The notes: generated by a model from the sequence alone, not told the origin. Shown: positions 5,241 to 64,000, counted from the first letter of the stretch. The stretch is 64,000 nucleotides of DNA from Nitrospirota bacterium (GCA_030645475.1 JAUSMA010000032.1:5515-69514); one strand, 5' to 3'. Translations and numbers: made by a program.

Positions 5241-6485
5241 ATGTCTGACTTCTACCAAAACGGTGTCGTCACGGTGCTGCACCGCCTCGGACAACCGAAC
5301 GTCGATCAACTCGAACGGGAGTTAGCGCGGTATGGGCGCGTCAACCCCATCGCCTTAGTTCTCCCATCCCTCTATGCAGAATTGGGGCGCCCCGCATTGA
5401 AAGCCATTGTGGAGACCCTCAAAACGGTGTCGTATCTGAACGAAATCGTCATCTCGTTAGATCGCGCCTCAGCCTTGGAGTTTCGCCTGGCCAAACAATT
5501 CTTTTCCGAACTCCCTCAACGGGTACGTCTCATCTGGAATGACGGCGAGCGCATCCAAGCCATCCTCAAGCTCTTAGTCGATCACAACCTCGATATCGGC
5601 CTGCAGGGCAAAGGTCGAGGCTGCTGGACAGCCTTCGGCTACATATTGGCCCGAAACCAAAGTCAGGTCATCGCCCTGCACGACTGCGATATCACCAGCT
5701 ACAACCGGGAATATCTCGCGCGCCTCTGCTACCCCATCGCCAATCCGAACCTCGGCTATGAATTCTGCAAAGGCTACTACAGCCGCGTCACCGATCGGCT
5801 GCATGGGCGAGTCACACGCTTATTCTTCACCCCCATGATCAGAAGCCTGCAACAGCTCGTAGGGCCCCACGCCCTCCTCACCTTTCTCGACAGCTTTCGC
5901 TACCCGCTGGCCGGTGAGTTCGCCATGGTGCGGGACCTGGCCTGGACGAATAGAATTCCAGGAGACTGGGGTCTCGAAATCGGTGTTCTTTCAGAGGTCT
6001 ATCGGAACTGTGCTTTGCGCCGCATTTGCCAAGCTGATATTGCGGATGCCTATGACCATAAACACCAAGAGCTCTCGAATCACGACCCCGATGCCGGCCT
6101 CCTCAAGATGTGCGTCGATATCACGAAATCGCTCTTTAGAAACCTCGCGAGCGAAGGCGTGATCTTATCCGACGGGGTTCTCAAAACCTTGCGGGCAACC
6201 TATTTGCAAGCGGCCCAGGAAGCGATTAGTCGCTACGAAAACGATGCGGCTATCAACAGCCTCACGTTCGACCGGCACCAGGAGCGGACGGCCGTCGAGG
6301 TGTTCTTGAAAGGCATAAAGCTGGCCACGGAGGGTTTTCTCGACGATCCGCTGGGCGTTCCCATGATTTCAAACTGGAGCCGCGTGACCCATGCTGTACC
6401 AGACATTTTCGATCGCCTGGTCGAGGCCGTCGAAGCGGATCATGCCTGGGATCCCACATCTGAACCGGTAGCCACGCCGTCATGA
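5241..6485 (+). CDS. gpgS: Glucosyl-3-phosphoglycerate synthase-like glycosyltransferase (GT81-type)
   Basis: ATG at 5241 preceded by GGAGG (5231-5235). The GpgS/MpgS-like core is present: GKGRGCW, HDCDI in the DxD position, GRVTRLFFTPM, PLAGEFAM, WGLEIGVL, DHKHQ. Confidence 0.6.
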   Translation: MSDFYQNGVVTVLHRLGQPNVDQLERELARYGRVNPIALVLPSLYAELGRPALKAIVETLKTVSYLNEIVISLDRASALEFRLAKQFFSELPQRVRLIWNDGERIQAILKLLVDHNLDIGLQGKGRGCWTAFGYILARNQSQVIALHDCDITSYNREYLARLCYPIANPNLGYEFCKGYYSRVTDRLHGRVTRLFFTPMIRSLQQLVGPHALLTFLDSFRYPLAGEFAMVRDLAWTNRIPGDWGLEIGVLSEVYRNCALRRICQADIADAYDHKHQELSNHDPDAGLLKMCVDITKSLFRNLASEGVILSDGVLKTLRATYLQAAQEAISRYENDAAINSLTFDRHQERTAVEVFLKGIKLATEGFLDDPLGVPMISNWSRVTHAVPDIFDRLVEAVEADHAWDPTSEPVATPS

Positions 6486-7816
6486 ACACCGAACTCACAC
6501 CACTTACGGCACCGACGGAAGCTCGCATTCACGATATTGGCTCGGCAGAGATTCTCGTCGGGATTCCGAGCTACAACAACGCGGACACGGTCGGCCACGT
6601 CGTGCGGGCCGTGAGCGTGGGGCTCGCCAAACACTTCCCTGGCCGCCGGGCCGTCCTGGTCAATTCAGACGGGGGCTCTTCGGATGACACGACAGCCATC
6701 GTCACCCGCACCGCCGTCGACTTCCAACATCTGTTCATCGGCGAGCAGCAAAGCATCCTGCATCGGATCATTACTCCCTACCATGGCATTCCCGGAAAAG
6801 GCAGTGCCTTCCGAACGATCTTCGAGATTGCACGGCGATTGAAGGCCAGGGCCTGCGCGGTGGTCGACGCAGATCTCCGCAGCATTTCACCGGAATGGAT
6901 CGAACTGTTACTCCGCCCGATCATGGAAGAGGGATACGACTATGTCGCCCCCTACTATCTGCGCCACAAATATGACGGCACGATTACAAATAGTATCGCC
7001 TACCCGCTCACCAGAGCTCTCTACGGGCAACGAATCCGCCAGCCTATCGGCGGGGAGTTCGGCTTTTCCGGTGCACTCGCGGCCCATTACCTCGACCAAC
7101 ATGTCTGGGAATCGGAGGTGGCGCGGTTCGGCATCGATATCTGGATGACGACTGAGGCCATTGCCAGCGGTGCACGGGTCTGCCAAAGCTTCCTCGGCGC
7201 AAAAATCCATAATCCGAAGGATCCTGCTGCCGACCTGTCTGCCATGTTAATGCAAGTAGTGGGAGCACTCTTTGCCGCAATGGAACGGCATGAAGGCCTG
7301 TGGTCACAGCAGGAGGGATCGCAGCCGGTTCCACTCTTTGGGTTCCCCTACGAGGTCGGAGTCGAACCGGTCCATGTCAATGTAGAGCGGATGGTGTCGC
7401 ACTATCGACAGGGCCTCACCGATCTTGAACCCATCTGGCGGCAAATCCTGGCAAACGACACATTCACGCAGTTGCGCGACCTCCAGGGAGCATCCAGCAC
7501 CGACTGTCGAATCACCGATGAGTTGTGGGTCCAGGTCGTCTACGATGCGGCCATCGCCTATCACAAGCAAGTCATGCCGCGCGAGCACCTCCTAAAAGCC
7601 CTCACCCCCCTGTACTTAGGTCGAACCGCTTCGTTCGTCCATGCCACCCAAGGCCTGACGTCTACGGAGGCAGAACAGAAGATCGAAGCCTTGTGCCAGA
7701 CGTTCGAACGTATGAAACCCTATCTGGTTGAGCGTTGGCAACCGCTGGCACTACAACCCGCAGTGCCGGCGCTGTTGCACCACACGACGACCGACGCAGG
7801 AGGTGATCATGAATGA
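6482..7816 (+). CDS. GT-A fold glycosyltransferase (GT2-like), candidate second sugar transferase of the cluster
   Basis: ATGA overlap with the upstream stop. N-terminal GT-A signature ILVGIPSYNNADTVGHVV...NSDGGSSDDT, then VVDADL. Confidence 0.6.
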   Translation: MNTELTPLTAPTEARIHDIGSAEILVGIPSYNNADTVGHVVRAVSVGLAKHFPGRRAVLVNSDGGSSDDTTAIVTRTAVDFQHLFIGEQQSILHRIITPYHGIPGKGSAFRTIFEIARRLKARACAVVDADLRSISPEWIELLLRPIMEEGYDYVAPYYLRHKYDGTITNSIAYPLTRALYGQRIRQPIGGEFGFSGALAAHYLDQHVWESEVARFGIDIWMTTEAIASGARVCQSFLGAKIHNPKDPAADLSAMLMQVVGALFAAMERHEGLWSQQEGSQPVPLFGFPYEVGVEPVHVNVERMVSHYRQGLTDLEPIWRQILANDTFTQLRDLQGASSTDCRITDELWVQVVYDAAIAYHKQVMPREHLLKALTPLYLGRTASFVHATQGLTSTEAEQKIEALCQTFERMKPYLVERWQPLALQPAVPALLHHTTTDAGGDHE

Positions 7817-23328: not shown

Positions 23329-24135
23329 ATGGGTATGTCCGAAACGGCCCAAACACATACCCTATCCCCCAAACTCGTCCTCGAACATGTCTCGAAGTGG
23401 TTCAAGACCAGTTCGCTGCACGTGCATGCGCTCGATGACGTGACACTCCGCATCACTGAAGGAGAGTTCGTCTGTCTCGTCGGCCCCAGCGGCTGCGGAA
23501 AATCGACCCTGCTCAATATCATCGCCGGCCTCGACCGACCCGATCAGGGGCTGGTTCAAGCCGATGGTCAGAGCATCACAGGGCCGGGGCCCCATCGTCT
23601 CGTGATGTTTCAAGAAGCCGCGCTCTTCCCCTGGCTGACGGTTCTGGGCAATGTGCTGTTCGGGTTACAGCTGAGAAACGGGCTCACCGCCGCCGCGCGA
23701 CGAGAAACCGCCGAGTATTATCTGGAACTCGTAGGCTTGAAGCGGTTCATGCATGCCAATGTGCACGAGCTATCGGGCGGCATGAAACAGCGGGTGGCCT
23801 TGGCCAGAGCGCTGGCTCCGAATCCCAGCATGCTCTTGATGGACGAACCCTTCGGCGCGCTGGATGCCCTGACGCGGGAGCAGTTGTATGGAGACATTCA
23901 ACGTATCTGGAGCCAGCATCGGAAAACGATCGTCTTCGTCACGCACAACGTGCGCGAGGCCGTCTGCTTGGGAGACCGCGTGATATTGTTCTCGCCGAAC
24001 CCTGGACGGATTCGCGAGGAATTCGCCATTCCCCTCCCTCGTCCACGCGACATCAACAGCGTGGATCTAGCCCGCTATGCGACGGAGATCACCCGCGTAT
24101 TGAAAGGCTATGTCCAGACCGAGGTGGCTGGATGA
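23329..24135 (+). CDS. ABC transporter ATP-binding protein (NitT/TauT family)
   Basis: Walker A GPSGCGKST, signature LSGGMKQRV, Walker B LLMDEP. Confidence 0.85.
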   Translation: MGMSETAQTHTLSPKLVLEHVSKWFKTSSLHVHALDDVTLRITEGEFVCLVGPSGCGKSTLLNIIAGLDRPDQGLVQADGQSITGPGPHRLVMFQEAALFPWLTVLGNVLFGLQLRNGLTAAARRETAEYYLELVGLKRFMHANVHELSGGMKQRVALARALAPNPSMLLMDEPFGALDALTREQLYGDIQRIWSQHRKTIVFVTHNVREAVCLGDRVILFSPNPGRIREEFAIPLPRPRDINSVDLARYATEITRVLKGYVQTEVAG

Positions 24136-24902
24136 TCGCACGGTGGCTGACTGCATCCCTGTTCTTCGTGTTCCTCGTGGTGGCATGGCATCTGGTCGTG
24201 GAGGCACACATCTGGTCTCCCGTCTTGCTGCCCTCGCCCCTTAGCGTCTTTGAGTACCTTCGGTCCGCGGTTGAAGACGGCACGCTCCGGGAGGCTACGG
24301 TCGTCACCGTACGGCGGCTCCTCATCGGCTATGGATTGGGAATCCTCGCCGGGCTTCCCTTGGGATTACTCACCGCATCATCTCGCTGGTGCCAGGACAC
24401 GATCGGCATCCTCGCGCTGGGACTCCAAACCCTCCCCAGCGTCTGCTGGGTGCCGCTGGCCCTGCTCTGGTTCGGCCAAACGGAATCCGCCATGCTGTTC
24501 GTCGTGGTAATGGGAACCCTCTGGTCATTGATCATTGCGACCGACAACGGAGTGCGGACCGTTCCCCCCATTTACGCCAGGGCCGCACGCAGCATGGGGT
24601 CGACGGGACTCCATACCTGGACGCATGTGATCCTGCCGGCGGCGCTTCCATTTTTGTTGAGCGGCATGAAGCAGGGCTGGGCCTTCGCCTGGCGTTCCCT
24701 CATGGCCGCCGAGATTTTCGTCACGATTCTGACCGGCTTCGGTCTCGGCCACTTGCTGCATTACGGTCGTGAATTGAGTGCCATGGACCAAGTGATCGGC
24801 GTCATGCTCGTGGTCGTCATCATCGACCTCGCGGTCGATACAACACTCTTTGCCCCCATAGAGCGATTTCTCCATCGCCGTTGGGGCACCGAACGGGCTT
24901 GA
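24132..24902 (+). CDS. ABC transporter permease (NitT/TauT family)
   Basis: ATGA overlap with the ATPase gene. Six-helix BPD-type permease with an EAA-like loop (ARAARSMGSTGLHTWTHVILPAALP). Confidence 0.8.
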   Translation: MIARWLTASLFFVFLVVAWHLVVEAHIWSPVLLPSPLSVFEYLRSAVEDGTLREATVVTVRRLLIGYGLGILAGLPLGLLTASSRWCQDTIGILALGLQTLPSVCWVPLALLWFGQTESAMLFVVVMGTLWSLIIATDNGVRTVPPIYARAARSMGSTGLHTWTHVILPAALPFLLSGMKQGWAFAWRSLMAAEIFVTILTGFGLGHLLHYGRELSAMDQVIGVMLVVVIIDLAVDTTLFAPIERFLHRRWGTERA

Positions 24903-24973
24903 GTCACGCCCCGCATGATTCGACTCCGCCGTGGCAGGCTGACACTTCTCCGGCCGCTGTGCTAGGCTGCGCC

Positions 24974-26533
24974 ATGCCTGCCAGTTGGCTCAGTCGCCTC
25001 TCCATCGGCCAAAAGCTTGCCATCTCGTTTGGCCTGATCGTCATTCTATTGATCGGCAGCTTCTCCGCGACGCTTGTGTATCTCTCACGCGTGAATAGTT
25101 ACGTCGATCGGCATCAACGGATCACGATCCCGGGCGTCGTCACGGCATCGGAGATGCTCCGCAACCTCTTCGACATGCAGACCCATATGCACCATCTCCT
25201 CGAACATCTGGACACCGCGACCCAAGCCATCAGCCTGAAGACCATCGCAGACATCGAGCACCGAACGCTCACCGCACTGGACACCTATCAAGCGACCCAC
25301 GCCGCGCGAACACACCCCGTCTTGTATGGCATGCTCCAACAGCATGGACGGGGCAACCTGGCCGACGAGGAAAATCTCACGATCGTCGCCATTGCCGATG
25401 GTATGAGCGCTCTCCGCGCTCAGCGTGAAGACATCGAGACCGCTGCTAGCCGGCACACGAAAAATCCCGCAGACACAGAATTCCTCTATGAACAGACCGC
25501 GGCCAGGATCGCAGATGCCATCGCCTCGCTCATTGAAGTTCACCGCAAAATCGATGTGGAGATGAAAATCGAGGGGGATCGCCTCGTCGAGCAGGCACGG
25601 CTCATCGTCTTCGGAGTGGTCGGCCTGTTGGGGCTTCTCGTCCTGTCGATCTACCTCATGATGAAACAACTCGTGGCCAACCCTCTCAAACGCTTAGCCG
25701 CCACGGCAGACCGTGTCGCCCACCATGACCTCGCGGCGCAGTTTGAGCCCTGGCCCACGCAGGATGAGGTCGGGATCCTGGCCAACTCCCTGACGGCCAT
25801 GCTGGCGAATCTCCGCGAGCGGGGCACCGCCCTGATGCGCAAGACCAAGGAACTCGAAGCCTTCACCTACTCTATTGCACATGACCTCAAAGGACCTCTT
25901 CGCGAAATCGAAGGGTTCTCCTCGCTCCTGGAAAAGCGATTTCAAGAAGCCGGAGACCCGCAAGTCCAGCACCACATCGACGTGATCCGTCGATCCGCCC
26001 TGCGCCTCACGCACATGATCGATGCCCTGCTCAAGTATTCACGACTGGAACAACAAGATTTCCCACGCACCCGCTTCAATGTGCTGGAGATGATCAACAG
26101 CCTGCTCGTCGACCGGCAGAGCCAGTTCACCGGCATCGCACCTCGGATCACCATCAATCTCCCCTTCGCCGACCTGTATGGCGAACCGGTCAGCATCCGG
26201 CAGGCCCTGGTCAATCTCCTCGACAATGCCATCAAGTTCTCCCGTTTCTCTCCGGCTCCAAGCATCAACATCGGAGGACAGCAGACGCCGACCGAACGTA
26301 GGCTCTGGATACAGGACAATGGTATCGGTTTCGACACCGACCAGGAACAAAAGCTCTTCGGTCTTTTCGAGCGATTACACAATGCCCAGGATTACGAAGG
26401 CACCGGCGTCGGCCTGGCCATTGTGAAAATGGTCATGGAGAAACATGGAGGCCGTGCCTGGGCCGAATCATCCCCTGGCACAGGCAGCACATTTTCTCTG
26501 GCATTTCCGAATAACCAGGAAGCGATCAGTTAG
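24974..26533 (+). CDS. Sensor histidine kinase (N-terminal four-helix-bundle-type sensor, HAMP, HisKA, HATPase_c)
   Basis: ATG at 24974. Two TM segments. H-box FTYSIAHDLKGPL, N-box LLDNAIKF, G-box GTGVGLAIV. Confidence 0.85.
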   Translation: MPASWLSRLSIGQKLAISFGLIVILLIGSFSATLVYLSRVNSYVDRHQRITIPGVVTASEMLRNLFDMQTHMHHLLEHLDTATQAISLKTIADIEHRTLTALDTYQATHAARTHPVLYGMLQQHGRGNLADEENLTIVAIADGMSALRAQREDIETAASRHTKNPADTEFLYEQTAARIADAIASLIEVHRKIDVEMKIEGDRLVEQARLIVFGVVGLLGLLVLSIYLMMKQLVANPLKRLAATADRVAHHDLAAQFEPWPTQDEVGILANSLTAMLANLRERGTALMRKTKELEAFTYSIAHDLKGPLREIEGFSSLLEKRFQEAGDPQVQHHIDVIRRSALRLTHMIDALLKYSRLEQQDFPRTRFNVLEMINSLLVDRQSQFTGIAPRITINLPFADLYGEPVSIRQALVNLLDNAIKFSRFSPAPSINIGGQQTPTERRLWIQDNGIGFDTDQEQKLFGLFERLHNAQDYEGTGVGLAIVKMVMEKHGGRAWAESSPGTGSTFSLAFPNNQEAIS

Positions 26534-26543
26534 GATTAAGACC

Positions 26544-26578
26544 TGACAGCTGAGAGCTGACCGCTGAAGGCTAAAGCA
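26544..26578. repeat. Tandem heptamer array (tgacagc tgagagc tgaccgc tgaaggc taaagca)
   Basis: Five consecutive 7-nt units with consensus TGANNGC. They fill the kinase-regulator spacer and end exactly at the ATG at 26579. Confidence 0.8.
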
Positions 26579-27931
26579 ATGCGCATACTCATCATCGACG
26601 ACGAAGAATACGTTCGCTTAGTACTCGAGCAGGCGCTCCGCGAGGAAGGCTGCGAGGTGACCGCCGTCACGCATGGGACAGCAGGCATCGAGGCGCTTCA
26701 AACCGGCACCTTCGAATGCGTCATCACCGATCTTCGCATGCCTGGCCTCGACGGGCGAGGCGTCTTAAAGTGGGTCCGCGAGCATCAGCCAGACCTGGAC
26801 GTCCTGATGCTGACCGGCCACGGCGACGTCAAAGACGCGGTCGAGGCGATCAAACAGGGGGCCTGGGATTTTTTAGTCAAGGACACGCCCTTCGACGCCG
26901 CAGCGGTCAACGCCGCATTAGCCAGGCTGAAAACCGTACGTGCCCTCCGCAAAGAAAACCTGGCGGCCCGCCATGGAGGCTTCACGCGCGATGTCATCGT
27001 CGAAGGACCCAGCCAAGCCTGGCAAACACTCAAAACCAAGATCGCGCAGGTGGCCCCCTCCAATGCAGCTATCCTCATTCAAGGGGAAACCGGTTCAGGC
27101 AAAGAAATCGCGGCGCGGCTGCTCCACGATTTGAGTCGGCGAGCCAGCGGACCCTTCATCGCCATCAACTGCGGCGCCATAAGCCGTGAACTCCTGGAAA
27201 GCGAACTCTTCGGACACGAAAAGGGCTCGTTTACCGGCGCAACTGCTGCAAAACCAGGGCTCATCGCCGCCGCCGAAGGGGGCACACTCTTTCTGGATGA
27301 ACTGGGGGAAATGCCCGGTCCGATGCAGGTGAGCCTATTGCGGTTCCTGGATCGTGGCGAATACCGCCCCGTCGGCAGCACGCGGACGCTCCAGGCCAAC
27401 GTCCGCGTCGTCGGAGCCACGAACCAGGACATCCAGGAGCTCGTCCACCAAGGCCGCTTCAGGGACGACCTGCTCTACCGCATCAACACCGTCACCCTCC
27501 GCGTGCCTCCACTCCGCGAGAGGAAGGAGGACCTGCCAACACTTGCCGAACATATACTTTCCACGTTACGTATCCCGGGAACCACCAAACGAACCCTCTC
27601 ACCCGAAGCCCTACAAACGCTGGCCGCCCACAGTTGGCCCGGCAACGTGCGTGAACTGCGCAACGTGCTTGAAGGAATCGTGCTGATGAGCAACAGTATA
27701 GGTCCGATCGGCCAAGAAGAAGTCGTCGCCCTGTTGCCGAAAACCCGAACCACGTTGCACCCGGGAGATCAGACGCAGCTCTCACTGGACGAGATCGAAC
27801 GGCTCCACATCCAGCGTGTCCTCGACGCCACCGGTGGAAACAAGACCCAGGCGGCCAAAACGCTCGCCATCGACTACAAGACGTTACTCACAAAGCTCAA
27901 AAAATATCGTCTCGTTTCTGACGAAAGTTAG
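26579..27931 (+). CDS. Sigma-54-dependent response regulator (NtrC family: REC, AAA+, Fis-type HTH)
   Basis: REC domain (ILIIDDE, VITDLRMPG). Walker A GETGSGKE. ESELFGHEKGSFTGA (GAFTGA-type loop). C-terminal GGNKTQAAKTLAIDYKTLLTKLKKY. Confidence 0.9.
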   Translation: MRILIIDDEEYVRLVLEQALREEGCEVTAVTHGTAGIEALQTGTFECVITDLRMPGLDGRGVLKWVREHQPDLDVLMLTGHGDVKDAVEAIKQGAWDFLVKDTPFDAAAVNAALARLKTVRALRKENLAARHGGFTRDVIVEGPSQAWQTLKTKIAQVAPSNAAILIQGETGSGKEIAARLLHDLSRRASGPFIAINCGAISRELLESELFGHEKGSFTGATAAKPGLIAAAEGGTLFLDELGEMPGPMQVSLLRFLDRGEYRPVGSTRTLQANVRVVGATNQDIQELVHQGRFRDDLLYRINTVTLRVPPLRERKEDLPTLAEHILSTLRIPGTTKRTLSPEALQTLAAHSWPGNVRELRNVLEGIVLMSNSIGPIGQEEVVALLPKTRTTLHPGDQTQLSLDEIERLHIQRVLDATGGNKTQAAKTLAIDYKTLLTKLKKYRLVSDES

Positions 27932-56781: not shown

Positions 56782-56989
56782 TCCTGCTCCCTCGATCGAT
56801 TGTGCTCTGTGCGTGAACCGTCTCGCTGCCGTGAAGAGTTCATCTTACCGAATCACCTGCATGAAATCTACGAAGTCTGCGCCGTGACAGGGTTTTTCAC
56901 TCGCCATCGAGACCGGATGCTGGTGATCCTCCGCGAGACTCGGTATACTCGCTGGCACTCACCTTGGCACTCAAACACGATCATCTCTT

Positions 56990-58358: not shown

Positions 58359-58880
58359 ATGACCATGCAATTTCAGAAAATCGATCCGCGCGTCACCATT
58401 ACGACGCCCTTCGGCGAGATCAAAGTTCGCTTCTACCCGGATGATGCGCCGCGTCACGTCGAGAACTTTATCAAACTCGTGAAAATGGGGTTCTACAATG
58501 GAACCACCTTCCATCGCGTGGTGCCTGGATTCATCATTCAGGGCGGCGATCCGCTGAGCAAGAATCCAGACCGTTCCCTGCACGGGTCGGGCAGTCCCGG
58601 GTACTGGCTCAACCCGGAAACCAGCGATCGGCCTCATAAACGGGGTGCCATCGCCATGGCCAAGGTGCCACGGGAGAGTAATAGCACCAGAGATTTTAAC
58701 GACAGTGGATCGCAGTTCTACATCAGTGTTGCAGACAACAGCGGACTAGACCGCACCTATACGGTCTTCGGCGAAGTCTTTCGGGGCATGGAGGTGGTAG
58801 ACAAGATCGTCGCCGCGGTCCGGGACGACTGCGACAATCCCCTCGAACCGATCCCCATGACCATGACCGTGAAGGAGTAA
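58359..58880 (+). CDS. Cyclophilin-type peptidyl-prolyl cis-trans isomerase
   Basis: ATG at 58359. FHRVVPGFIIQGGDP and GSQFYI signatures. Confidence 0.85.
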   Translation: MTMQFQKIDPRVTITTPFGEIKVRFYPDDAPRHVENFIKLVKMGFYNGTTFHRVVPGFIIQGGDPLSKNPDRSLHGSGSPGYWLNPETSDRPHKRGAIAMAKVPRESNSTRDFNDSGSQFYISVADNSGLDRTYTVFGEVFRGMEVVDKIVAAVRDDCDNPLEPIPMTMTVKE

Positions 58881-59051
58881 GGAGAGAACGAGCGAGTTTG
58901 TTGGAAGTGAATGGGACTCCGCGAGGTGAGGTGGACGGTGATCCGCTTGAAATGCGATAAGAATCTCTAGGTTCTTGCCCGCTCTTCACGTCTTTCTGTT
59001 CCGTCAATACACGACATAGTCCGTTCTGCATCTGCTGGTTCCCTGAACCGG

Positions 59052-59073
59052 AACATGTCTTCTCTGACATGTT
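59052..59073. promoter_or_regulatory. Perfect palindrome AACATGTC-N6-GACATGTT (candidate enhancer/UAS)
   Basis: 8-bp arms at 59052-59059 and 59066-59073. The centre lies about 110 bp upstream of the -24 element at 59171. Confidence 0.45.
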
Positions 59074-59170
59074 TGGTAGGGGAATTCATACAGGCTAACA
59101 AAACCGCCTCAGCTCATTCGAGCCATCTGGTGTTTCTCCGCAAAACATCAATGATATTGGCATCGACGAG

Positions 59171-59186
59171 TGGCACACCGATTGCG
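59171..59186 (+). promoter_or_regulatory. Candidate sigma-54 (-24/-12) promoter
   Basis: TGGCACaccgaTTGCG matches TGGCAC-N5-TTGC exactly. It lies 30 nt upstream of the ATG at 59216, with AGAGGA in between as the SD. Confidence 0.6.
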
Positions 59187-59215
59187 TAAGGGCCTGGACC
59201 ATCCAGAGGAGTTTC

Positions 59216-62200
59216 ATGACCGCTACACAAGTTCGCTTTGAAGTCAGTCTGACCCGAACCACGATCGTGGCGACAGCCATCGCCGTCACATTGTTTTTCT
59301 GGTCCATTGCCTCGGTGCTCAGCGAAGAACTCGAACAAGGGAATCTCTTCCATGTCGTCGAAGCCATGGTCTTCCTCTTGTTGGTGGGATTTCTGATCTC
59401 CGGGAACTTCGGCTATCAATTGGCCCGGCTGGCCTATCTAAAGCGCTGGCTCGGCCATGTCCCGGCCACCAGAGACGAATTGATGCAGTCGTTCGCCTCG
59501 CCAACACCGCTCCTGACGATTCTGGTGCCTTCGTACAAAGAAGAAACGAACGTCATCCGTCAAACGCTGCTATCGGCGGCCTTGCAGGAATATCCGCACA
59601 AGCGGGTCGTGCTGTTGTTGGACAATCCGCCGAATCCACGCACGGCAGAAGATCGCGAAGCCCTGCTGGCTGCCCGGTCCATGCCGGCTGAACTCCATGC
59701 CCTGCTCGACGACCAGGCTCGTTACTTTGAGAGCCTGCTGGTGCAATTCATGTTGCGCCAGCAGACAGGGGTACGCGAACGTGCACAAGAATATGTCGCG
59801 TTAGCCCAGGCCTATGAGCATGCAGCGCACTGGTTTCAAGAGCAGGCCGACCGGTTGCCCGACAGCACGCACTCCGATGCCTGGTTTGCAGAGCACATTC
59901 TCCGCGGGCCGGCACGTCGATATGAAGAGCGGGCTGCGCATTGGCATCGTCAGGCCCAGGCTATTTCCGAAGAGCAGACGCCACAGGAGCGCCTCCTGCT
60001 CGCCGAGTACCGTTCTCTGGCCGCCGTATTCCAGGCAGACATCGCGGTCTTCGAACGAAAACGCTACCAGAACCTCTCGCATGAACTGAACAAGGCGATG
60101 AATCTGAACAGTTATCTCGGCGTGATGGGCCGGCGTCTGCATGAAGTGCCGCACGCGACCGGACTTATGCTAGAGGAAACGACGGACCTCCAAGGGTCCT
60201 ATGAGATCCCGGACTCGCCCTATGTCATTACCTTAGATGCAGACAGTCTCATTCTGTCGGACTATGCCATCCGCCTCATTCAGATCATGGAGCAGCCAGG
60301 CAATGAACGACTCGCCGTGGCGCAGACTCCCTACAGCGCCATTCCGAACGCACCGGGCCTGCTCGAACGAACCGCCGGAGCGACCACCGACATTCAATAT
60401 CTCCTGCATCAAGGCTTCACCTACTTCGGCGCCACATTTTGGGTTGGCGCGAACGCACTCCTCCGGAAGGCCGCCTTGGAAGACATTTGCGTGGCAGAGA
60501 CGACCGCACATGGAGTGATTCGTCGCTATATCCAGGATCGCACGGTGATTGAAGACACGGAATCGACGGTCGATTTGATGGCGCGAGGATGGCGGCTCTT
60601 TAACTACCCGGAACGGCTGGCCTACAGCGCCACGCCCGGCGATTTCGGCTCCCTCATTATCCAGCGAGGCCGCTGGGCCAACGGAGGGCTCCTCATTCTG
60701 CCCAAGCTGCTCCGGTATCTCAGAAACGTGCCGAAAACCCCGACACTCGTCCCGCAGAGTTTCTACCAGCTACATTACCTCACCTCGATGGCGCTGTCTC
60801 CCATCTGCGTGCTGCTGTTGTTGGCGGTCCCCTTCTCCTCCAAGCTTATGACCGTCTGGCTGTCGATGACCGCCATCCCCTACTTCCTCCTCTATGCTCG
60901 CGATCTCTCGATCCTGCGCTATCGAGGCCTCATCGACTTCATACGAGTCTATGCCCTCAACCTCCTCTTGCTGCCCGTGCACCTTGGCGGTGCCATGAAA
61001 TCGGTCCAGCAACTCGTCACTGGCGAAAAAATTCCCTTCCGCCGCACACCAAAAGTACTTGGGCGAACTGGTGCACCGGCGCTCTACGTGGCCCTTGAAT
61101 ACGGGCTCCTGCTGCTCTGCTGTGTCACGGGACTCTTCTATGCCTCGCAAGGCCGATGGATCTCCGCAGCCTTTGCCCTGGTGAATGGCGCGCTCTATGG
61201 CTATGCCATTTCATCATTCATCGGGTTCGCTGAGAGCCTGGAAGATCTGCAGCCTGTCTGGAAGAGCCTGCGGCCTCAACACCTGGTCCCAGCCCTGGAC
61301 GCCATCGGACAACGGATTGTTGGCAGCACCTCCTATATCTGGCGAATCCCGGCCATGCTCCGAAATCTCCGTGAGCAAAGCTCCCTCTACTTCGCCATTT
61401 CGAGCTGCTGCGCACTGCTGGAAGTCTTCGCCCCAGCGGCTCTGTTAGGCGCAGTCGACGGGGCCCCATCCCCTATTCAACTAGAGAACCGGAAGCCTGG
61501 CACGACCGACTGGGTGCTGACGCGCCCGGCCCTGCACCGTGAAATTGAAGGGTATGCCTCGCTGACCAGCGTGAATCGCGGAGAGAAACTGAACCTCTTC
61601 GTGAATACGGCCGCAAACTTCTATACTGTGAAAATTTACCGGATGGGCTGGTACCAAGGAACCGGTGCGCGTGAGATCGCCGGGCCCATTCGCCGTAAGG
61701 GGCAGGTGCAATCACAACCCACGACAGATCCGCGCACCGGTCTGATCGAGTGCCGCTGGGACAATCCCGTCACACTGGCCGTCCCGCTCAATCCATCGGA
61801 TGCCACAGACTGGGCCAGCGGGGTCTACCTGGCCAAACTGACGGCTGAACCGACGGGCGATCAAAGTTATATCGTATTCGTCGTCCGCGACGATGCGCGC
61901 CCCTCGACCTATCTCATCCAATCGAGCGTCACGACCTTTCAGGCCTACAATAATTGGGGCGGCAAATCGCTCTATGCCTTTAACAGTGCGGGGGGACAAG
62001 CCGCGAAGGTCTCCTTCAACCGTCCCTATGCCATCAGCCCTCTCCCGATTGCATCAGGTGGCGTTGGTGCAGGAGACTTCCTCACATCCAACTCATTCCC
62101 CATCGGCTACCAGTCCTCGGCTGCAGGCTGGGAATATAATATGGTGCGCTGGCTGGAGCGGGAAGGCTATGACGTGACCTATGCCACGAATGTCGATGTC

Positions 62201-62953
62201 CATGCCAACCAAGCTCTCCTGGCATCTCATCAGGCGTTCCTCTCTGTCGGACATGATGAATATTGGAGCTGGGAGATGCGCCACCACGTCGAGCAGGCTC
62301 GCGACCGGGGCACCCATGTGGGATTCTTCTCCGCCAATACCTGCTACTGGCAAATTCGCCTGGAGCCGAGCCGGCTCACTGGTGAATCGAACAGGACGAT
62401 CGTCGCGCATAAAGAAAATGCCCCCTGGCATGATCCCTTGCAGCTCGATCAAGACCCCACGAACGACTACCTCATCACGACGAAATGGCGCAATCCTCCC
62501 GTGAATCGTCCGGAAGCTGCCTTGATCGGAAGCATGTTCATTGAAACCGACGCTCCAGTAGATGGAGACTTCGTGATTGAGGATGCCTCCCATTGGATCC
62601 TCAATGGAACGGGATTACAGCAAGGCGACCGCTTGCCGGGACTCTTGGGCTACGAAGTCGACGGAGGGCGCGATTCGACTCCACCAAGCACCCAGGTGAT
62701 CGCCCGTGCGCGAGTGGCCTCACCAGAAGGCACGGTCACGGTCTACAACGCGGCGAATGGCGCGATCATCTTTTCGACCGGTTCCATACAGTGGAGTTGG
62801 GGCCTGGACGATTACGCTGTTCCGGCCCTCCGCACATCGCGGCTCAGTCCGGCTGCCCAACAGATAACCCGCAATGTTCTGGCTCGTTTCAGTGGAAAGG
62901 ATGTTGCGGCAGACTCCGTCAACCAGACTAGCCAGCCGGCACCACTACGGTAG
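59216..62953 (+). CDS. Processive GT2 beta-glycan synthase (membrane-embedded) fused to a C-terminal N,N-dimethylformamidase-beta-subunit-like domain
   Basis: 1245 aa. N-terminal TM helices. GT2 motifs: LLLDNPPNP, NKAMNLN, TLDADS, EDTEST, QRGRW (nt 60662-60676). More TM helices span roughly residues 520-740. From ENRKPGTTDW (about nt 61478) there is a ~490-aa domain with TTFQAYNNWGGKSLY. Confidence 0.7.
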   Translation: MTATQVRFEVSLTRTTIVATAIAVTLFFWSIASVLSEELEQGNLFHVVEAMVFLLLVGFLISGNFGYQLARLAYLKRWLGHVPATRDELMQSFASPTPLLTILVPSYKEETNVIRQTLLSAALQEYPHKRVVLLLDNPPNPRTAEDREALLAARSMPAELHALLDDQARYFESLLVQFMLRQQTGVRERAQEYVALAQAYEHAAHWFQEQADRLPDSTHSDAWFAEHILRGPARRYEERAAHWHRQAQAISEEQTPQERLLLAEYRSLAAVFQADIAVFERKRYQNLSHELNKAMNLNSYLGVMGRRLHEVPHATGLMLEETTDLQGSYEIPDSPYVITLDADSLILSDYAIRLIQIMEQPGNERLAVAQTPYSAIPNAPGLLERTAGATTDIQYLLHQGFTYFGATFWVGANALLRKAALEDICVAETTAHGVIRRYIQDRTVIEDTESTVDLMARGWRLFNYPERLAYSATPGDFGSLIIQRGRWANGGLLILPKLLRYLRNVPKTPTLVPQSFYQLHYLTSMALSPICVLLLLAVPFSSKLMTVWLSMTAIPYFLLYARDLSILRYRGLIDFIRVYALNLLLLPVHLGGAMKSVQQLVTGEKIPFRRTPKVLGRTGAPALYVALEYGLLLLCCVTGLFYASQGRWISAAFALVNGALYGYAISSFIGFAESLEDLQPVWKSLRPQHLVPALDAIGQRIVGSTSYIWRIPAMLRNLREQSSLYFAISSCCALLEVFAPAALLGAVDGAPSPIQLENRKPGTTDWVLTRPALHREIEGYASLTSVNRGEKLNLFVNTAANFYTVKIYRMGWYQGTGAREIAGPIRRKGQVQSQPTTDPRTGLIECRWDNPVTLAVPLNPSDATDWASGVYLAKLTAEPTGDQSYIVFVVRDDARPSTYLIQSSVTTFQAYNNWGGKSLYAFNSAGGQAAKVSFNRPYAISPLPIASGGVGAGDFLTSNSFPIGYQSSAAGWEYNMVRWLEREGYDVTYATNVDVHANQALLASHQAFLSVGHDEYWSWEMRHHVEQARDRGTHVGFFSANTCYWQIRLEPSRLTGESNRTIVAHKENAPWHDPLQLDQDPTNDYLITTKWRNPPVNRPEAALIGSMFIETDAPVDGDFVIEDASHWILNGTGLQQGDRLPGLLGYEVDGGRDSTPPSTQVIARARVASPEGTVTVYNAANGAIIFSTGSIQWSWGLDDYAVPALRTSRLSPAAQQITRNVLARFSGKDVAADSVNQTSQPAPLR

Positions 62954-63009
62954 AATCGACTGCCTTGCACCCTCCAATCGATACCGCAGCGTCACCTCAG
63001 GCAACAACC

Positions 63010-64000
63010 GTGGCTCAGCGATCCGGCTCATTTGACGTAATACGAGTCTGTGCCTGCCTCGCTGTTGTCCTGCTACACCTCTGCGCCACCATCGTGATGC
63101 AACCGGATCAGCTGGGCACAGTCAGCTGGCATCTGGCCAACCTCTTCGATTCTGCCACGCGGTGGTCAGTGCCGGTCTTTGTGATGTTGAGCGGCGCCTT
63201 ATTACTCGATGCGAACAAACAGACCAGTCCCCGTGATTTCTGGGCCAAACGCATGAACCGGCTGTTGCCGGCACTGCTGTTCTGGTCAGCCATCTATCTG
63301 GCCTGGCGTACGTTTTTCTGGCACCAGCCGCTCACCCTCAATACGATTGCCCTAGACCTGATTGCAGGACGGCCCTACATTCATCTCTACTTTCTCTTCC
63401 TGATCGCGGGGCTCTATCTCGTGACACCTTTTCTGGCAATGGCAGCAACCAGTCTCAGTTCGAAACACCTCGGTCAGGCGATCCTGGTCATGGCGGCCCT
63501 GGCGTTGGGAGCCAACTTGGCCGATTTTCTCGCCACCAGCATTTTCACGATGTTCGTCCCCTACATCGCCTATTACTTCGCGGGACTCTATTGTGTCCTG
63601 GTGCTCGTAAACCGCCCAGGCCCCTATGGCCTCCTCTTGGCCGGTGCCATTGCTACGACCACCCTGCTCACAGCCTTTTTAGTATCAGTGAAAGGTCTTG
63701 ATGACCACTGGTCCTTCTACTTCTATGAAGACTTTAGCCCCACCATCATGATGATGGCGGTCACAGTCTTCATGGTCCTCCTCCGTGCGACATTCTCCCC
63801 TGCTATTCAGTCGATAGCGCAGCGCCTGGCGCCCTGGACGTTGGGAGTCTACGTGGCCCATCCGATCATCGTGGAGCTATTACGAAACCTCTACCACACC
63901 ACAATGCCAGCCATGTTCCGCCCCCTCTACTACATCCCCATCACCTTCGCCGCCACCATTGTCATCACCTTTACGGCTGTCGCGCTGATGCAGAGAATCC
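63010..64000 (+). CDS. Acyltransferase family 3 (O-acyltransferase), 3'-truncated by the window end
   Basis: This open frame is not in the ORF track because no stop lies within the window. It reads FDVIRVCACLAVVLLH...RWSVPVFVMLSGALL with about 9 TM segments. The start is tentative (GTG at 63010 or TTG at 62965). Confidence 0.65.
   Translation, partial: MAQRSGSFDVIRVCACLAVVLLHLCATIVMQPDQLGTVSWHLANLFDSATRWSVPVFVMLSGALLLDANKQTSPRDFWAKRMNRLLPALLFWSAIYLAWRTFFWHQPLTLNTIALDLIAGRPYIHLYFLFLIAGLYLVTPFLAMAATSLSSKHLGQAILVMAALALGANLADFLATSIFTMFVPYIAYYFAGLYCVLVLVNRPGPYGLLLAGAIATTTLLTAFLVSVKGLDDHWSFYFYEDFSPTIMMMAVTVFMVLLRATFSPAIQSIAQRLAPWTLGVYVAHPIIVELLRNLYHTTMPAMFRPLYYIPITFAATIVITFTAVALMQRI

Follow-up and report, generated by a model that had tools for sequence, protein, structure and literature searches.

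A candidate sigma-54-controlled exopolysaccharide synthase fused to a dimethylformamidase-like domain in Nitrospira

Why would a polysaccharide synthase carry at its C-terminus a domain related to N,N-dimethylformamidase (DMFase), and what controls its gene? The question is raised by positions 59,052 to 64,000 of a 64,000-nucleotide (nt) stretch of DNA from a Nitrospirota bacterium (GCA_030645475.1 JAUSMA010000032.1:5515-69514), which was analysed as a whole and is called the window below. An earlier note on this DNA had proposed that the locus encodes a single-polypeptide exopolysaccharide synthase of glycosyltransferase family 2 (GT2), that its appended amidase/amidotransferase-like domain acts on the nascent glycan, that the glycan is O-acylated and that it is made only under control of a sigma-54 activator. 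Our analysis, in which functional statements rest on sequence and predicted structure, supports this interpretation overall. On balance we consider it probable that the locus is a sigma-54-controlled exopolysaccharide module similar to MatB and Ica, in which an iron-type amidohydrolase replaces the carbohydrate esterase family 4 (CE4) enzyme as the co-synthetic de-N-acylase. The coding features, with residue numbers referring to the fusion protein and TM standing for transmembrane, are as follows.

59216..62953, plus strand: gene of the synthase and DMFA2_C fusion, ATG start, 1245 amino acids (aa)
59216..61255, plus strand: synthase core, residues 1-680, delimited by the AlphaFold2 (AF2) model, Foldseek and invariant motifs
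59645..60031, plus strand: four-helix insert in the GT domain, residues 144-272, seen as AF2 helices
61382..61456, plus strand: TM helix 7 (TM7), residues 723-747
61457..62890, plus strand: putative periplasmic DMFase-like module, an immunoglobulin (Ig)-like beta-sandwich (about residues 775-893) followed by an alpha/beta catalytic domain
62965..64000, plus strand, running ~23 nt beyond the window: gene of an Acyl_transf_3 membrane O-acyltransferase, start TTG 62965 or GTG 63010
59206..59211, plus strand: Shine-Dalgarno sequence GAGGAG, 4 nt ahead of the ATG, read from the sequence

The fusion protein and its DMFase-like domain

The union of a synthase and a DMFase-like domain in one polypeptide is genuine. 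Among 5.8 billion proteins, from sources including ENA, JGI, Logan and NCBI assemblies, the continuous GT2 and PF20254 architecture recurs in about 65 independent protein clusters of 52-94% identity and 1211-1285 aa, and every named cluster belongs to Nitrospira. An assembly or frameshift artefact is ruled out by the presence of the same fusion in independent ENA, JGI, Logan and NCBI assemblies. Full-length matches in GTDB, compared with one genome per species, were confined to Nitrospira (L004-L011, L027), and a single fusion (P0016) was found among the top 150 relatives of the C-terminal domain in a library clustered at 50% identity. The statement of the earlier note that no synthase with this fusion had been characterised holds in the literature searched; NCBI and JGI annotate the architecture automatically, and the NCBI name for the fusions is 'N,N-dimethylformamidase beta subunit family domain-containing protein'.

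The C-terminal domain opens with 'SPIQLENRKPGTTDW' and includes 'TTFQAYNNWGGKSLY'. Its identification as DMFase-beta-like or DUF6605-type was borne out, since DMFA2_C (PF20254) matches residues 804-1198 with E = 8e-115 (384.6 bits versus a cut-off of 27), and one NCBI record names a relative 'DUF6605 domain-containing protein'. An AF2 run on the domain with a more diverse alignment gave a predicted local distance difference test score (pLDDT) of 90 and a predicted template modelling score (pTM) of 0.91. Foldseek on this model returned 8I5A at 3e-19 and 6LVB at 3e-18, the next match standing at 9e-7, so that the strong relatives in the PDB are only two, N-acetyl-(R)-beta-phenylalanine acylase (8HUY, 8I5A) and DMFase (6LVB), both of them N-acyl amidohydrolases. 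The family profile matches DMFase and the acylase at about 1e-29 to 3e-30 (DMFase E = 3e-30), and the profile alignment equates Y399, Y440, H519, E521 and N547 of DMFase with Y911, Y920, H1013, E1015 and N1041 of the fusion protein, all five of which are invariant in 86 sequences of 33-86% identity. In DMFase Fe(III) is bound by Y399, Y440 and E521, the single mutations H519A, Y440A and E521A each abolish activity, and a buried water is held by N547 (PMC7686228). Judged by these residues, the C-terminal domain looks like a competent metal amidohydrolase with a metal site of two tyrosines and one glutamate, an essential histidine and a water-binding asparagine. Of the earlier amidase/amidotransferase-like label the amidohydrolase half is thereby retained, the conserved residues being the DMFase set, and the amidotransferase half is dropped, because a conserved cysteine as required for GATase1 chemistry is missing from the active-site position.

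The domain shares with DMFase and the acylase the Ig-like and the ThuA/GATase1-like alpha/beta catalytic fold together with the five active-site residues, and these two enzymes hydrolyse N-formyl or N-acetyl amide bonds. Unlike the solved enzymes, which are taken to be cytoplasmic and act on small molecules, the domain has its predicted place outside the cytoplasm, tethered to a synthase, and its identity to them is about 13-19%. DMFase proper was considered and rejected: the profile alignment covers only residues 3-41 and 338 onward of DMFase, leaving its pentraxin domain II (74-337) without a counterpart, and no small-subunit-like gene was found in the two-gene operon. Without pentraxin domain II and without a small subunit the C-terminal domain is not a DMFase. 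The NodB-homology domain of CE4 (PF01522) has no match in the window protein.

The synthase core displays the hallmarks of a processive GT2 that had been noted earlier: TLDADS (339-344), VIEDTES (444-450) and QRGRW (483-487) were invariant when motif conservation was scored over 80 homologues. In the same 80 sequences D136, which lies in the DD-type motif LLLDNPP (133-139), D341/D343, E446/D447, Q483, R484, R486 and W487 do not vary, nor does the FxVTxK-like gating loop F608-RRTP-K613. Pfam assigns residues 336-557 to Glyco_trans_2_3 (E = 3e-28) and residues 101-149 to the first half of a GT2 domain. The AF2 model of the core has a pLDDT mostly of 80-95, and its best Foldseek matches in the PDB are BcsA 4P00 (E = 4e-14), then plant CesA (CesA8) and hyaluronan synthases (HAS). 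These motifs, the GT-A fold on a TM channel, the interface helices and the gating loop identify a processive membrane-embedded GT2 of the BcsA/CesA/HAS type. With BcsA (4P00, 4HG6) and plant CesA it has in common the fold, the DD, DxD, TED and QxxRW motifs, the interface helices and the FxVTxK-like loop. BcsA has four N-terminal TM helices; the window protein differs from it in having only two, in an extra C-terminal TM helix, in the predicted periplasmic enzyme domain and in lacking PilZ, for which Pfam gave no match in the window protein. Furthermore, unlike in cellulose systems, the neighbours that were checked include no gene for BcsB, BcsC or BcsZ. The synthase stays below the equivalog cut-offs both for cellulose synthase (TIGR03030, CelA; 72.2 bits versus 699.1) and for the synthase of poly-N-acetylglucosamine (PNAG; TIGR03937, PgaC/IcaA; 32.9 bits versus 422.3).

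A further difference from PgaC/IcaA is a helical insert of 130 aa, whose four helices (144-184, 189-213, 219-248 and 258-272) are modelled with pLDDT about 80-95. The earlier note had described an insert of ~170 aa between the first two catalytic motifs; the insert exists, but its size is about 130-150 aa and its placement differs. By comparison with the BcsA motifs, we place it between the DD-type LLLDNPP and the conserved NKAMNLN motif, presumably in roughly the place that the P-CR region takes in plant CesA. The core including the insert is kept across the synthase family, with continuous alignment over residues 1-678 to members from many phyla, and at 43-59% identity this family covers Nitrospira, several Proteobacteria classes, Chloroflexota, Actinomycetota, Chlorobi, Planctomycetota, Rokubacteria and Leptospira interrogans. 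We found no characterised member of the insert-bearing family.

Seven putative TM helices agree with the earlier claim of multiple helices. Hydropathy, charge distribution and AF2 helices give the order TM1-2 (3-66), cytoplasmic GT-A domain (about 95-490), QRGRW interface helix (477-504), TM3-4 (511-566), amphipathic interface helix 3 (571-602), cytoplasmic gating loop, TM5-6 (622-669), positively charged linker (672-722) and TM7, an order which we take to match the BcsA structure with one helix added. With seven helices and an N-terminus presumably inside, the C-terminal domain is predicted to lie in the periplasm. TM7, recognised by hydropathy and preceded by the positively charged RIPAMLRNLRE, is by its sequence a putative signal-anchor that stands in for the signal peptide of the stand-alone homologues. 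The closest relatives of the C-terminal domain (57-63% identity; Nitrospira, cyanobacteria, Actinomycetota) are indeed stand-alone proteins of 500-600 aa with Sec or twin-arginine (RRxFLK) signals, and their mature N-terminus NPIQxENxxPGT is the sequence found right after TM7. Modules of the PKD, Malectin, F5/8 type C, Laminin_G_3, Ig, fn3 or SGNH type, typical of secreted carbohydrate-active proteins, occur in other members of the family. Thus close homologues of the domain, unlike the solved enzymes, are secreted proteins with lectin-like or PKD modules.

Two stand-alone proteins, one of a cyanobacterium (P0143) and one of an Actinomycetota metagenome-assembled genome (MAG; P0194), carry the N-terminal twin-arginine motifs NRRVFLK and GRREFLK, which point to export in the folded state, possibly with the metal already loaded. 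The C-terminal domain of the Nitrospira fusion must cross the membrane unfolded after TM7. For a stand-alone Nitrospira copy (L003) no polysaccharide context was found around the gene. In Nostoc sp. PCC 7524 (L001, CP003552.1 965024-986658) a stand-alone DMFA2_C gene ends a cluster of several PMT_2 (GT-C) genes and one GT2-GtrA gene, the layout of which presumably resembles the Arn pathway of lipid-A modification. In the Arn pathway the CE4 enzyme ArnD is a deformylase; if the Nostoc cluster is Arn-like, it would be another setting with DMFA2_C where one might expect a CE4 amidase.

The acyltransferase-3 gene that the earlier note saw after the synthase was confirmed by PF01757 (Acyl_transf_3), which matches residues 22-336 of the complete 352-aa protein with E = 2e-32 (113.2 bits versus a gathering threshold of 31); the complete copy lies on the metagenome contig L087 and is 100% identical to the window. 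Such a gene stands directly 3' of every fusion that has at least about 100 nt of downstream sequence, with the exceptions of L004, L008 and L009. As no terminator-like site was found between the synthase and acyltransferase genes, the two form an operon. Just past the 3' end of the window (L087 4226-5004) the acyltransferase gene is succeeded by genes for a HigB toxin and a probable antitoxin, and this HigBA-like pair marks where the operon ends.

Exchange with CE4 enzymes and the proposed function

In sister Nitrospira synthases with cores of 51-53% identity (P0075, L013), the place of the C-terminal domain behind the extra TM helix is taken by a CE4 domain (PF01522), and in L013 the CE4 fusion is followed by the same acyltransferase. 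Five of the six CE4 fusions keep between the TM helix and CE4 a decaying N-terminal stub of DMFA2 (QL.N..G.TDWILT....EIEG) of up to about 33 aa, and the BLASTP alignment is continuous through linker, TM7 and stub (E = 3e-11). Because a stub of DMFA2 precedes it, CE4 must have displaced DMFA2_C in place. Outside Nitrospira, members of the same synthase family have one of two separate genes as a companion. It is a CE4 gene in L101, L106-L108 and L160, where it is convergent, and in L030, L032, L033, L043 and L075, where it lies nearby; it is a DMFA2_C gene of signal-peptide or lipoprotein type in L098, L164 and L166. The latter three belong to a different subfamily (29-32% identity), and none of the loci examined has both a separate CE4 and a separate DMFA2_C gene. 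The synthase-adjacent CE4 proteins score best, though far below cut-off, for the de-N-acetylases PgdA, NodB, HfsH and PdaA. Moreover, the pairs outside Nitrospira show no acyltransferase, so the hydrolases would not merely undo the work of that enzyme. In a Gammaproteobacteria MAG (L165, JACQEP010000014.1) a DMFA2_C gene of the same subfamily as in L098, L164 and L166 is convergent to a pga-like cluster, which encodes a PgaC-like GT2, a PgaB-like protein with CE4 and GHL13 and a protein with a faint match to tetratricopeptide repeats (TPR).

The closest synthase-modifier systems are those that make PNAG, namely MatB/SCO2961, staphylococcal IcaADBC and E. coli PgaABCD. Streptomyces MatB is a GT2-TM-CE4 protein with the icaC-like gene SCO2961 downstream and makes PNAG (PMC5972031). 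As in MatB, one polypeptide would join a cytoplasmic GT2, a TM helix and an extracytoplasmic modifying hydrolase, and an acyltransferase-3 gene lies directly downstream (PMC5972031). Unlike in MatB, Ica and Pga, the modifying domain is PF20254 with its site of two tyrosines and one glutamate, unrelated to CE4; unlike in Pga and Ica, the neighbouring genes that were checked include no PgaA/PgaD or IcaD partner. The operon belongs with the known synthase-modifier fusions of the MatB/Ica type, and the DMFase-like domain in the role of CE4 is the new element.

We propose that the BcsA-like GT2 (residues 1-680) would polymerise a UDP-sugar in the cytoplasm and thread the chain through its own membrane channel. 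The short cytoplasmic linker and TM7 would lead the polypeptide outward, so that the C-terminal 500 aa would stand in the periplasm beside the channel exit and remove N-acyl groups, most likely N-acetyl, from the nascent polymer on its emergence. This step would correspond to the job of the CE4 deacetylases (PgaB, IcaB, the CE4 domain of MatB) in PNAG-type systems. The expected product is a partly de-N-acylated, cationic, adhesive polymer, to which the Acyl_transf_3 protein may add O-acyl groups, like the icaC-type gene after matB in Streptomyces. The case for co-synthetic de-N-acylation is drawn from the fusion to the synthase, the CE4 swap, the separate-gene pairs, the de-N-acetylase-like scores of the CE4 proteins and the organisation of MatB.

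Promoter, enhancer and activator

Three candidate regulatory features lie upstream of the fusion gene.

59171..59186, plus strand: sigma-54 -24/-12 element TGGCACACCGATTGCG, sole exact match in the window, kept in relatives
59052..59073, plus strand: perfect palindrome AACATGTC-N6-GACATGTT, candidate enhancer (upstream activating sequence), beginning 119 nt upstream of the -24 element
58943..59020, plus strand: block with the dyad AAGAATCT-N2-AGGTTCTT (58959-58976), candidate second regulator-binding site

The promoter motif TGGCAC-N5-TTGC is present, 30 nt before the ATG as the earlier note had it; its span is 59171-59185, one base shorter than given there. One exact match occurs in the 64-kb window, where about 0.1 is expected by chance (our own rough estimate for 10 fixed bases on both strands), and with one mismatch there are 5 matches versus 4.6 expected; since the latter equal expectation, the motif alone is modest evidence. 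With the spacing usual for such an element, transcription would be expected to begin near 59197. A search of 58800-59300 gave neither a sigma-70-like promoter nor, even at E <= 1, an Rfam match.

Comparison with relatives adds considerably to this. In L085, L086 and L154, whose proteins are 83-89% identical to that of the window, the 16-nt element is identical at 16/16, 16/16 and 15/16 positions, whereas the adjacent upstream 51 nt are 82%, 49% and 43% identical; the 4-fold sites of the gene are 72% (L085) and 64% (L086) identical. Two further relatives, L084 and L088, were rejected as promoter evidence: their upstream regions are 100% and 96% identical at gene 4-fold sites of 84% and 58%, which recent recombination, not selection, explains. 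Both are mosaics with respect to the window. The identity of L084 (compared with 58881-62953) is 100% between the genes, 98% over the synthase core and 87-93% in linker and C-terminal domain, and that of L088 is 96% upstream and 80% in the protein. This pattern suggests that strains co-occurring in one metagenome (CXWL contigs) have recombined, with breakpoints that fall within the gene.

Farther away, 26 distant Nitrospira loci were scanned in all, and about 20 of them have a strong -24/-12 element 38-89 nt upstream of the synthase gene (TGGCACTGGGATTGCA in L004, CGGCACCYGGATTGCA in six loci), whatever the C-terminal domain. Nitrospira orthologues with as little as about 50% identity still keep the element. 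With the -24 GG, the -12 GC, canonical spacing, a fitting distance to the gene, conservation and the association with activators in orthologous loci all present in the sequence, the comparative evidence for putative sigma-54 control is strong. Nitrospira has been reported to use sigma-54 regulators (PMC7522533), and sigma-54 is generally tied to exopolysaccharide and envelope genes (PMC3162934). A second sequence resembling a -24/-12 element, TGGCACTCACCTTGG at 56953-56967, lies 23 nt before the start (56990) of a major facilitator superfamily (MFS) gene; it is probably not functional, because it has GG instead of GC at -12.

The palindrome is perfect, as claimed earlier, and its centre lies about 108 nt upstream of the -24 element. 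It is unique in the window even with three mismatches allowed (0.23 expected), and its right arm is invariant in five relatives. Of the enhancer geometry that the earlier note ascribed to a bacterial enhancer-binding protein (EBP), the spacing stands, the conservation is partial and an adjacent cognate activator is missing. The most conserved upstream stretch is the block at 58943-59020, upstream of the palindrome, with 68-78 of 78 positions identical in five relatives (4-fold sites 58-84%); by its conservation it could be the real enhancer or a second operator.

In ten orthologous loci (L005, L006, L007, L008, L011, L013, L015, L016, L027, L092) a gene for an activator of roughly 875 aa, with the order CHASE2, TM, Sigma54_activat and HTH_8, lies directly upstream on the same strand, about 240-540 nt from the synthase gene and 1.7 kb in L015. 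The membrane-anchored CHASE2 architecture of this sigma-54 activator appears unusual. The distant loci share the palindromic enhancer GCCACAG-N-TGAGGC-N-TGTGGC, which starts about 122 to 101 nt upstream of -24; the start of the window palindrome (-119) falls inside this range and its sequence differs. In the window, the position of the activator gene is taken by MFS and cyclophilin genes. These observations fit a predicted exchange of the regulator in this lineage with sigma-54 dependence retained. Accordingly, the locus resembles other exopolysaccharide genes under sigma-54 and EBP control in its canonical -24 GG/-12 GC spacing, in a palindrome about 110 bp upstream and in the activators adjacent in orthologous loci, and it is unlike typical systems in that the cognate activator is unlinked here, the ancestral CHASE2-TM-AAA+-HTH activator is unusual and the enhancer was exchanged in the lineage.

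Transcription would proceed from the -24/-12 promoter at 59171-59186 and require an enhancer-binding activator, whose probable binding sites are the palindrome (59052-59073), the conserved dyad block upstream of it, or both. In distant Nitrospira this activator would be the membrane CHASE2-sensor protein encoded next door; here it would have been replaced, the enhancer sequence being different.

The sole sigma-54 activator of the window, a REC-Sigma54_activat-HTH_8 regulator, lies 32 kb away from the promoter, where it forms an NtrC-type pair with a histidine kinase (24881-27931). It was rejected as the cognate regulator: the pair adjoins ABC-transporter-like genes (23329-24902), and no link to the promoter could be made. 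In L027 the gene at 5759-7045, immediately ahead of the one for the CHASE2-type activator, encodes a 428-aa TPR/Sel1 protein that by its sequence may be a periplasmic scaffold of the AlgK/PelB type.

Alternative explanations and wider meaning

Several observations weigh against a co-synthetic de-N-acylase under sigma-54 control. No result of this analysis shows N-acylated amino sugars in the polymer, and the synthase scores higher for CelA (72 bits) than for PgaC/IcaA (33 bits), both far under the cut-offs, and has cellulose synthases as its best fold matches. Secreted DMFA2_C subfamilies are without a member of known substrate, and CE4 enzymes include O-deacetylases too. DMFase needs its small subunit for activity (PMC7686228), and none is evident here. 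L012, with a synthase 76% identical, has no C-terminal domain and keeps the acyltransferase, so the domain is dispensable for synthesis. Full-length AF2 gave the C-terminal domain no confident placement (pLDDT < 50 for 685-770), so that its position at the channel exit is a putative one. With regard to control, the left arm of the palindrome has one change in two of the five relatives, and neither an orthologue of the CHASE2 activator nor rpoN was found in the window.

It is unlikely that the C-terminal domain, and with it the CE4 that replaces it, is an O-deacylase editing the acyltransferase's pattern on a neutral glucan such as acetylated cellulose. The closeness of the synthase to cellulose synthases, the acyltransferase that accompanies most fusions and the SGNH/GDSL esterase domains to which some DMFA2_C proteins are fused would all agree with this explanation, and metal amidohydrolases often cleave esters as well. 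The CE4 family also includes acetylxylan esterases (PMC5855634). However, the sequenced flanks of the CE4 pairs and of the DMFA2_C pairs named above contain no acyltransferase, so the hydrolase there is independent of acyltransferase-added groups, and conversely L012 and L015 keep the acyltransferase without any hydrolase domain; in addition, both solved relatives cut amides and the adjacent CE4 genes score best for N-deacetylases. Quite improbable is the cleavage of another bond, either by a glycosidase or lyase that trims or releases chains in the manner of BcsZ or PslG, or by a deformylase or peptide-amidase acting on a non-acetyl group. No known glycosidase has the fold or the metal site of the domain, and its recurrent replacement by CE4 and not by glycoside hydrolase families indicates de-acylation. 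DMFase itself does remove a formyl group, and the Nostoc homologue stands in a cluster with PMT_2 and GT2-GtrA genes; a deformylase, or an N-deacylase of another kind, would fall within the de-N-acylase explanation that we prefer.

The least probable of the explanations considered is a non-catalytic periplasmic module, similar to BcsB or a lectin, that guides, binds or anchors the chain. BcsB is built from beta-sandwich and flavodoxin-like domains, and some bacteria have it fused to BcsA; the C-terminal domain does include an Ig-like beta-sandwich, and it is dispensable in L012. A BcsB-like guide was nevertheless rejected, as no BcsB chain is among the top 50 Foldseek matches and all five catalytic or metal residues of DMFase are invariant across the 86 diverse sequences; moreover, the domain was displaced in place by CE4 with motifs that look intact when read by eye (TVDD, HTFSH, RYPY, LLLHM). 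For the control region, we regard it as very unlikely that TGGCAC-N5-TTGC and the palindrome are non-functional and that transcription reads through from the cyclophilin gene or begins at a sigma-70 promoter that escaped recognition. One exact occurrence of the motif in 64 kb would be only a modest surprise, no activator gene adjoins the fusion gene in the window and the left arm of the palindrome varies. Against this stand the preservation of the element where its flanks are not preserved, its equivalents in about 20 orthologous loci with unrelated upstream genes, the activator genes adjoining in ten loci and the lack of a sigma-70-like promoter in 58800-59300. The earlier note had named three outcomes that would defeat its idea, namely a C-terminal domain without match to DMFase-beta-like models, an artefactual fusion or a site without sigma-54-dependent transcription; as far as sequence allows a check, we encountered none of them.

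More tentatively, it is possible that PF20254/DUF6605 as a whole constitutes a large unrecognised family of secreted iron-type carbohydrate de-N-acylases, analogous to CE4, and that DMFase was recruited from glycan deacylases. The family comprises 9,057 clusters at 50% identity (E <= 1e-3); sampled members have the domain behind an export signal, often in combination with lectin-like or PKD modules. Among its thousands of secreted members there are two characterised relatives only, both small-molecule enzymes, and the literature searched held no paper on PF20254, DUF6605, DMFA2_C, 'dimethylformamidase beta subunit' or beta-phenylalanine acylase. The fusion to a synthase, the replacement by CE4 and the recurrent pairing converge on de-acylation of a nascent exopolysaccharide, which gives PF20254 a testable function. 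If the proposal is true, the Nitrospira fusion, the in-place CE4 swap and the separate-gene pairs would serve as a Rosetta stone for the natural substrate class of PF20254, and the origin of the DMFase fold and of its unusual iron site of two tyrosines and one glutamate would be explained. In a preprint, the fold is described as of unknown evolutionary origin and dimethylformamide is reported to be absent from nature (bioRxiv 10.1101/2019.12.17.879908).

As a compact unit under putative sigma-54 control, the operon would be a candidate for producing the matrix of Nitrospira, a key nitrifier that forms dense aggregates in biofilms and flocs. The ancestral CHASE2 membrane sensor, present in most lineages, offers a handle on what triggers aggregation. 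Furthermore, the insert-bearing synthase family has been neglected despite its occurrence in many phyla, including Leptospira interrogans and many Actinomycetota. Loci with an insert-bearing synthase (L012-L083) were found in genera including Demequina, Arthrobacter and Leifsonia.

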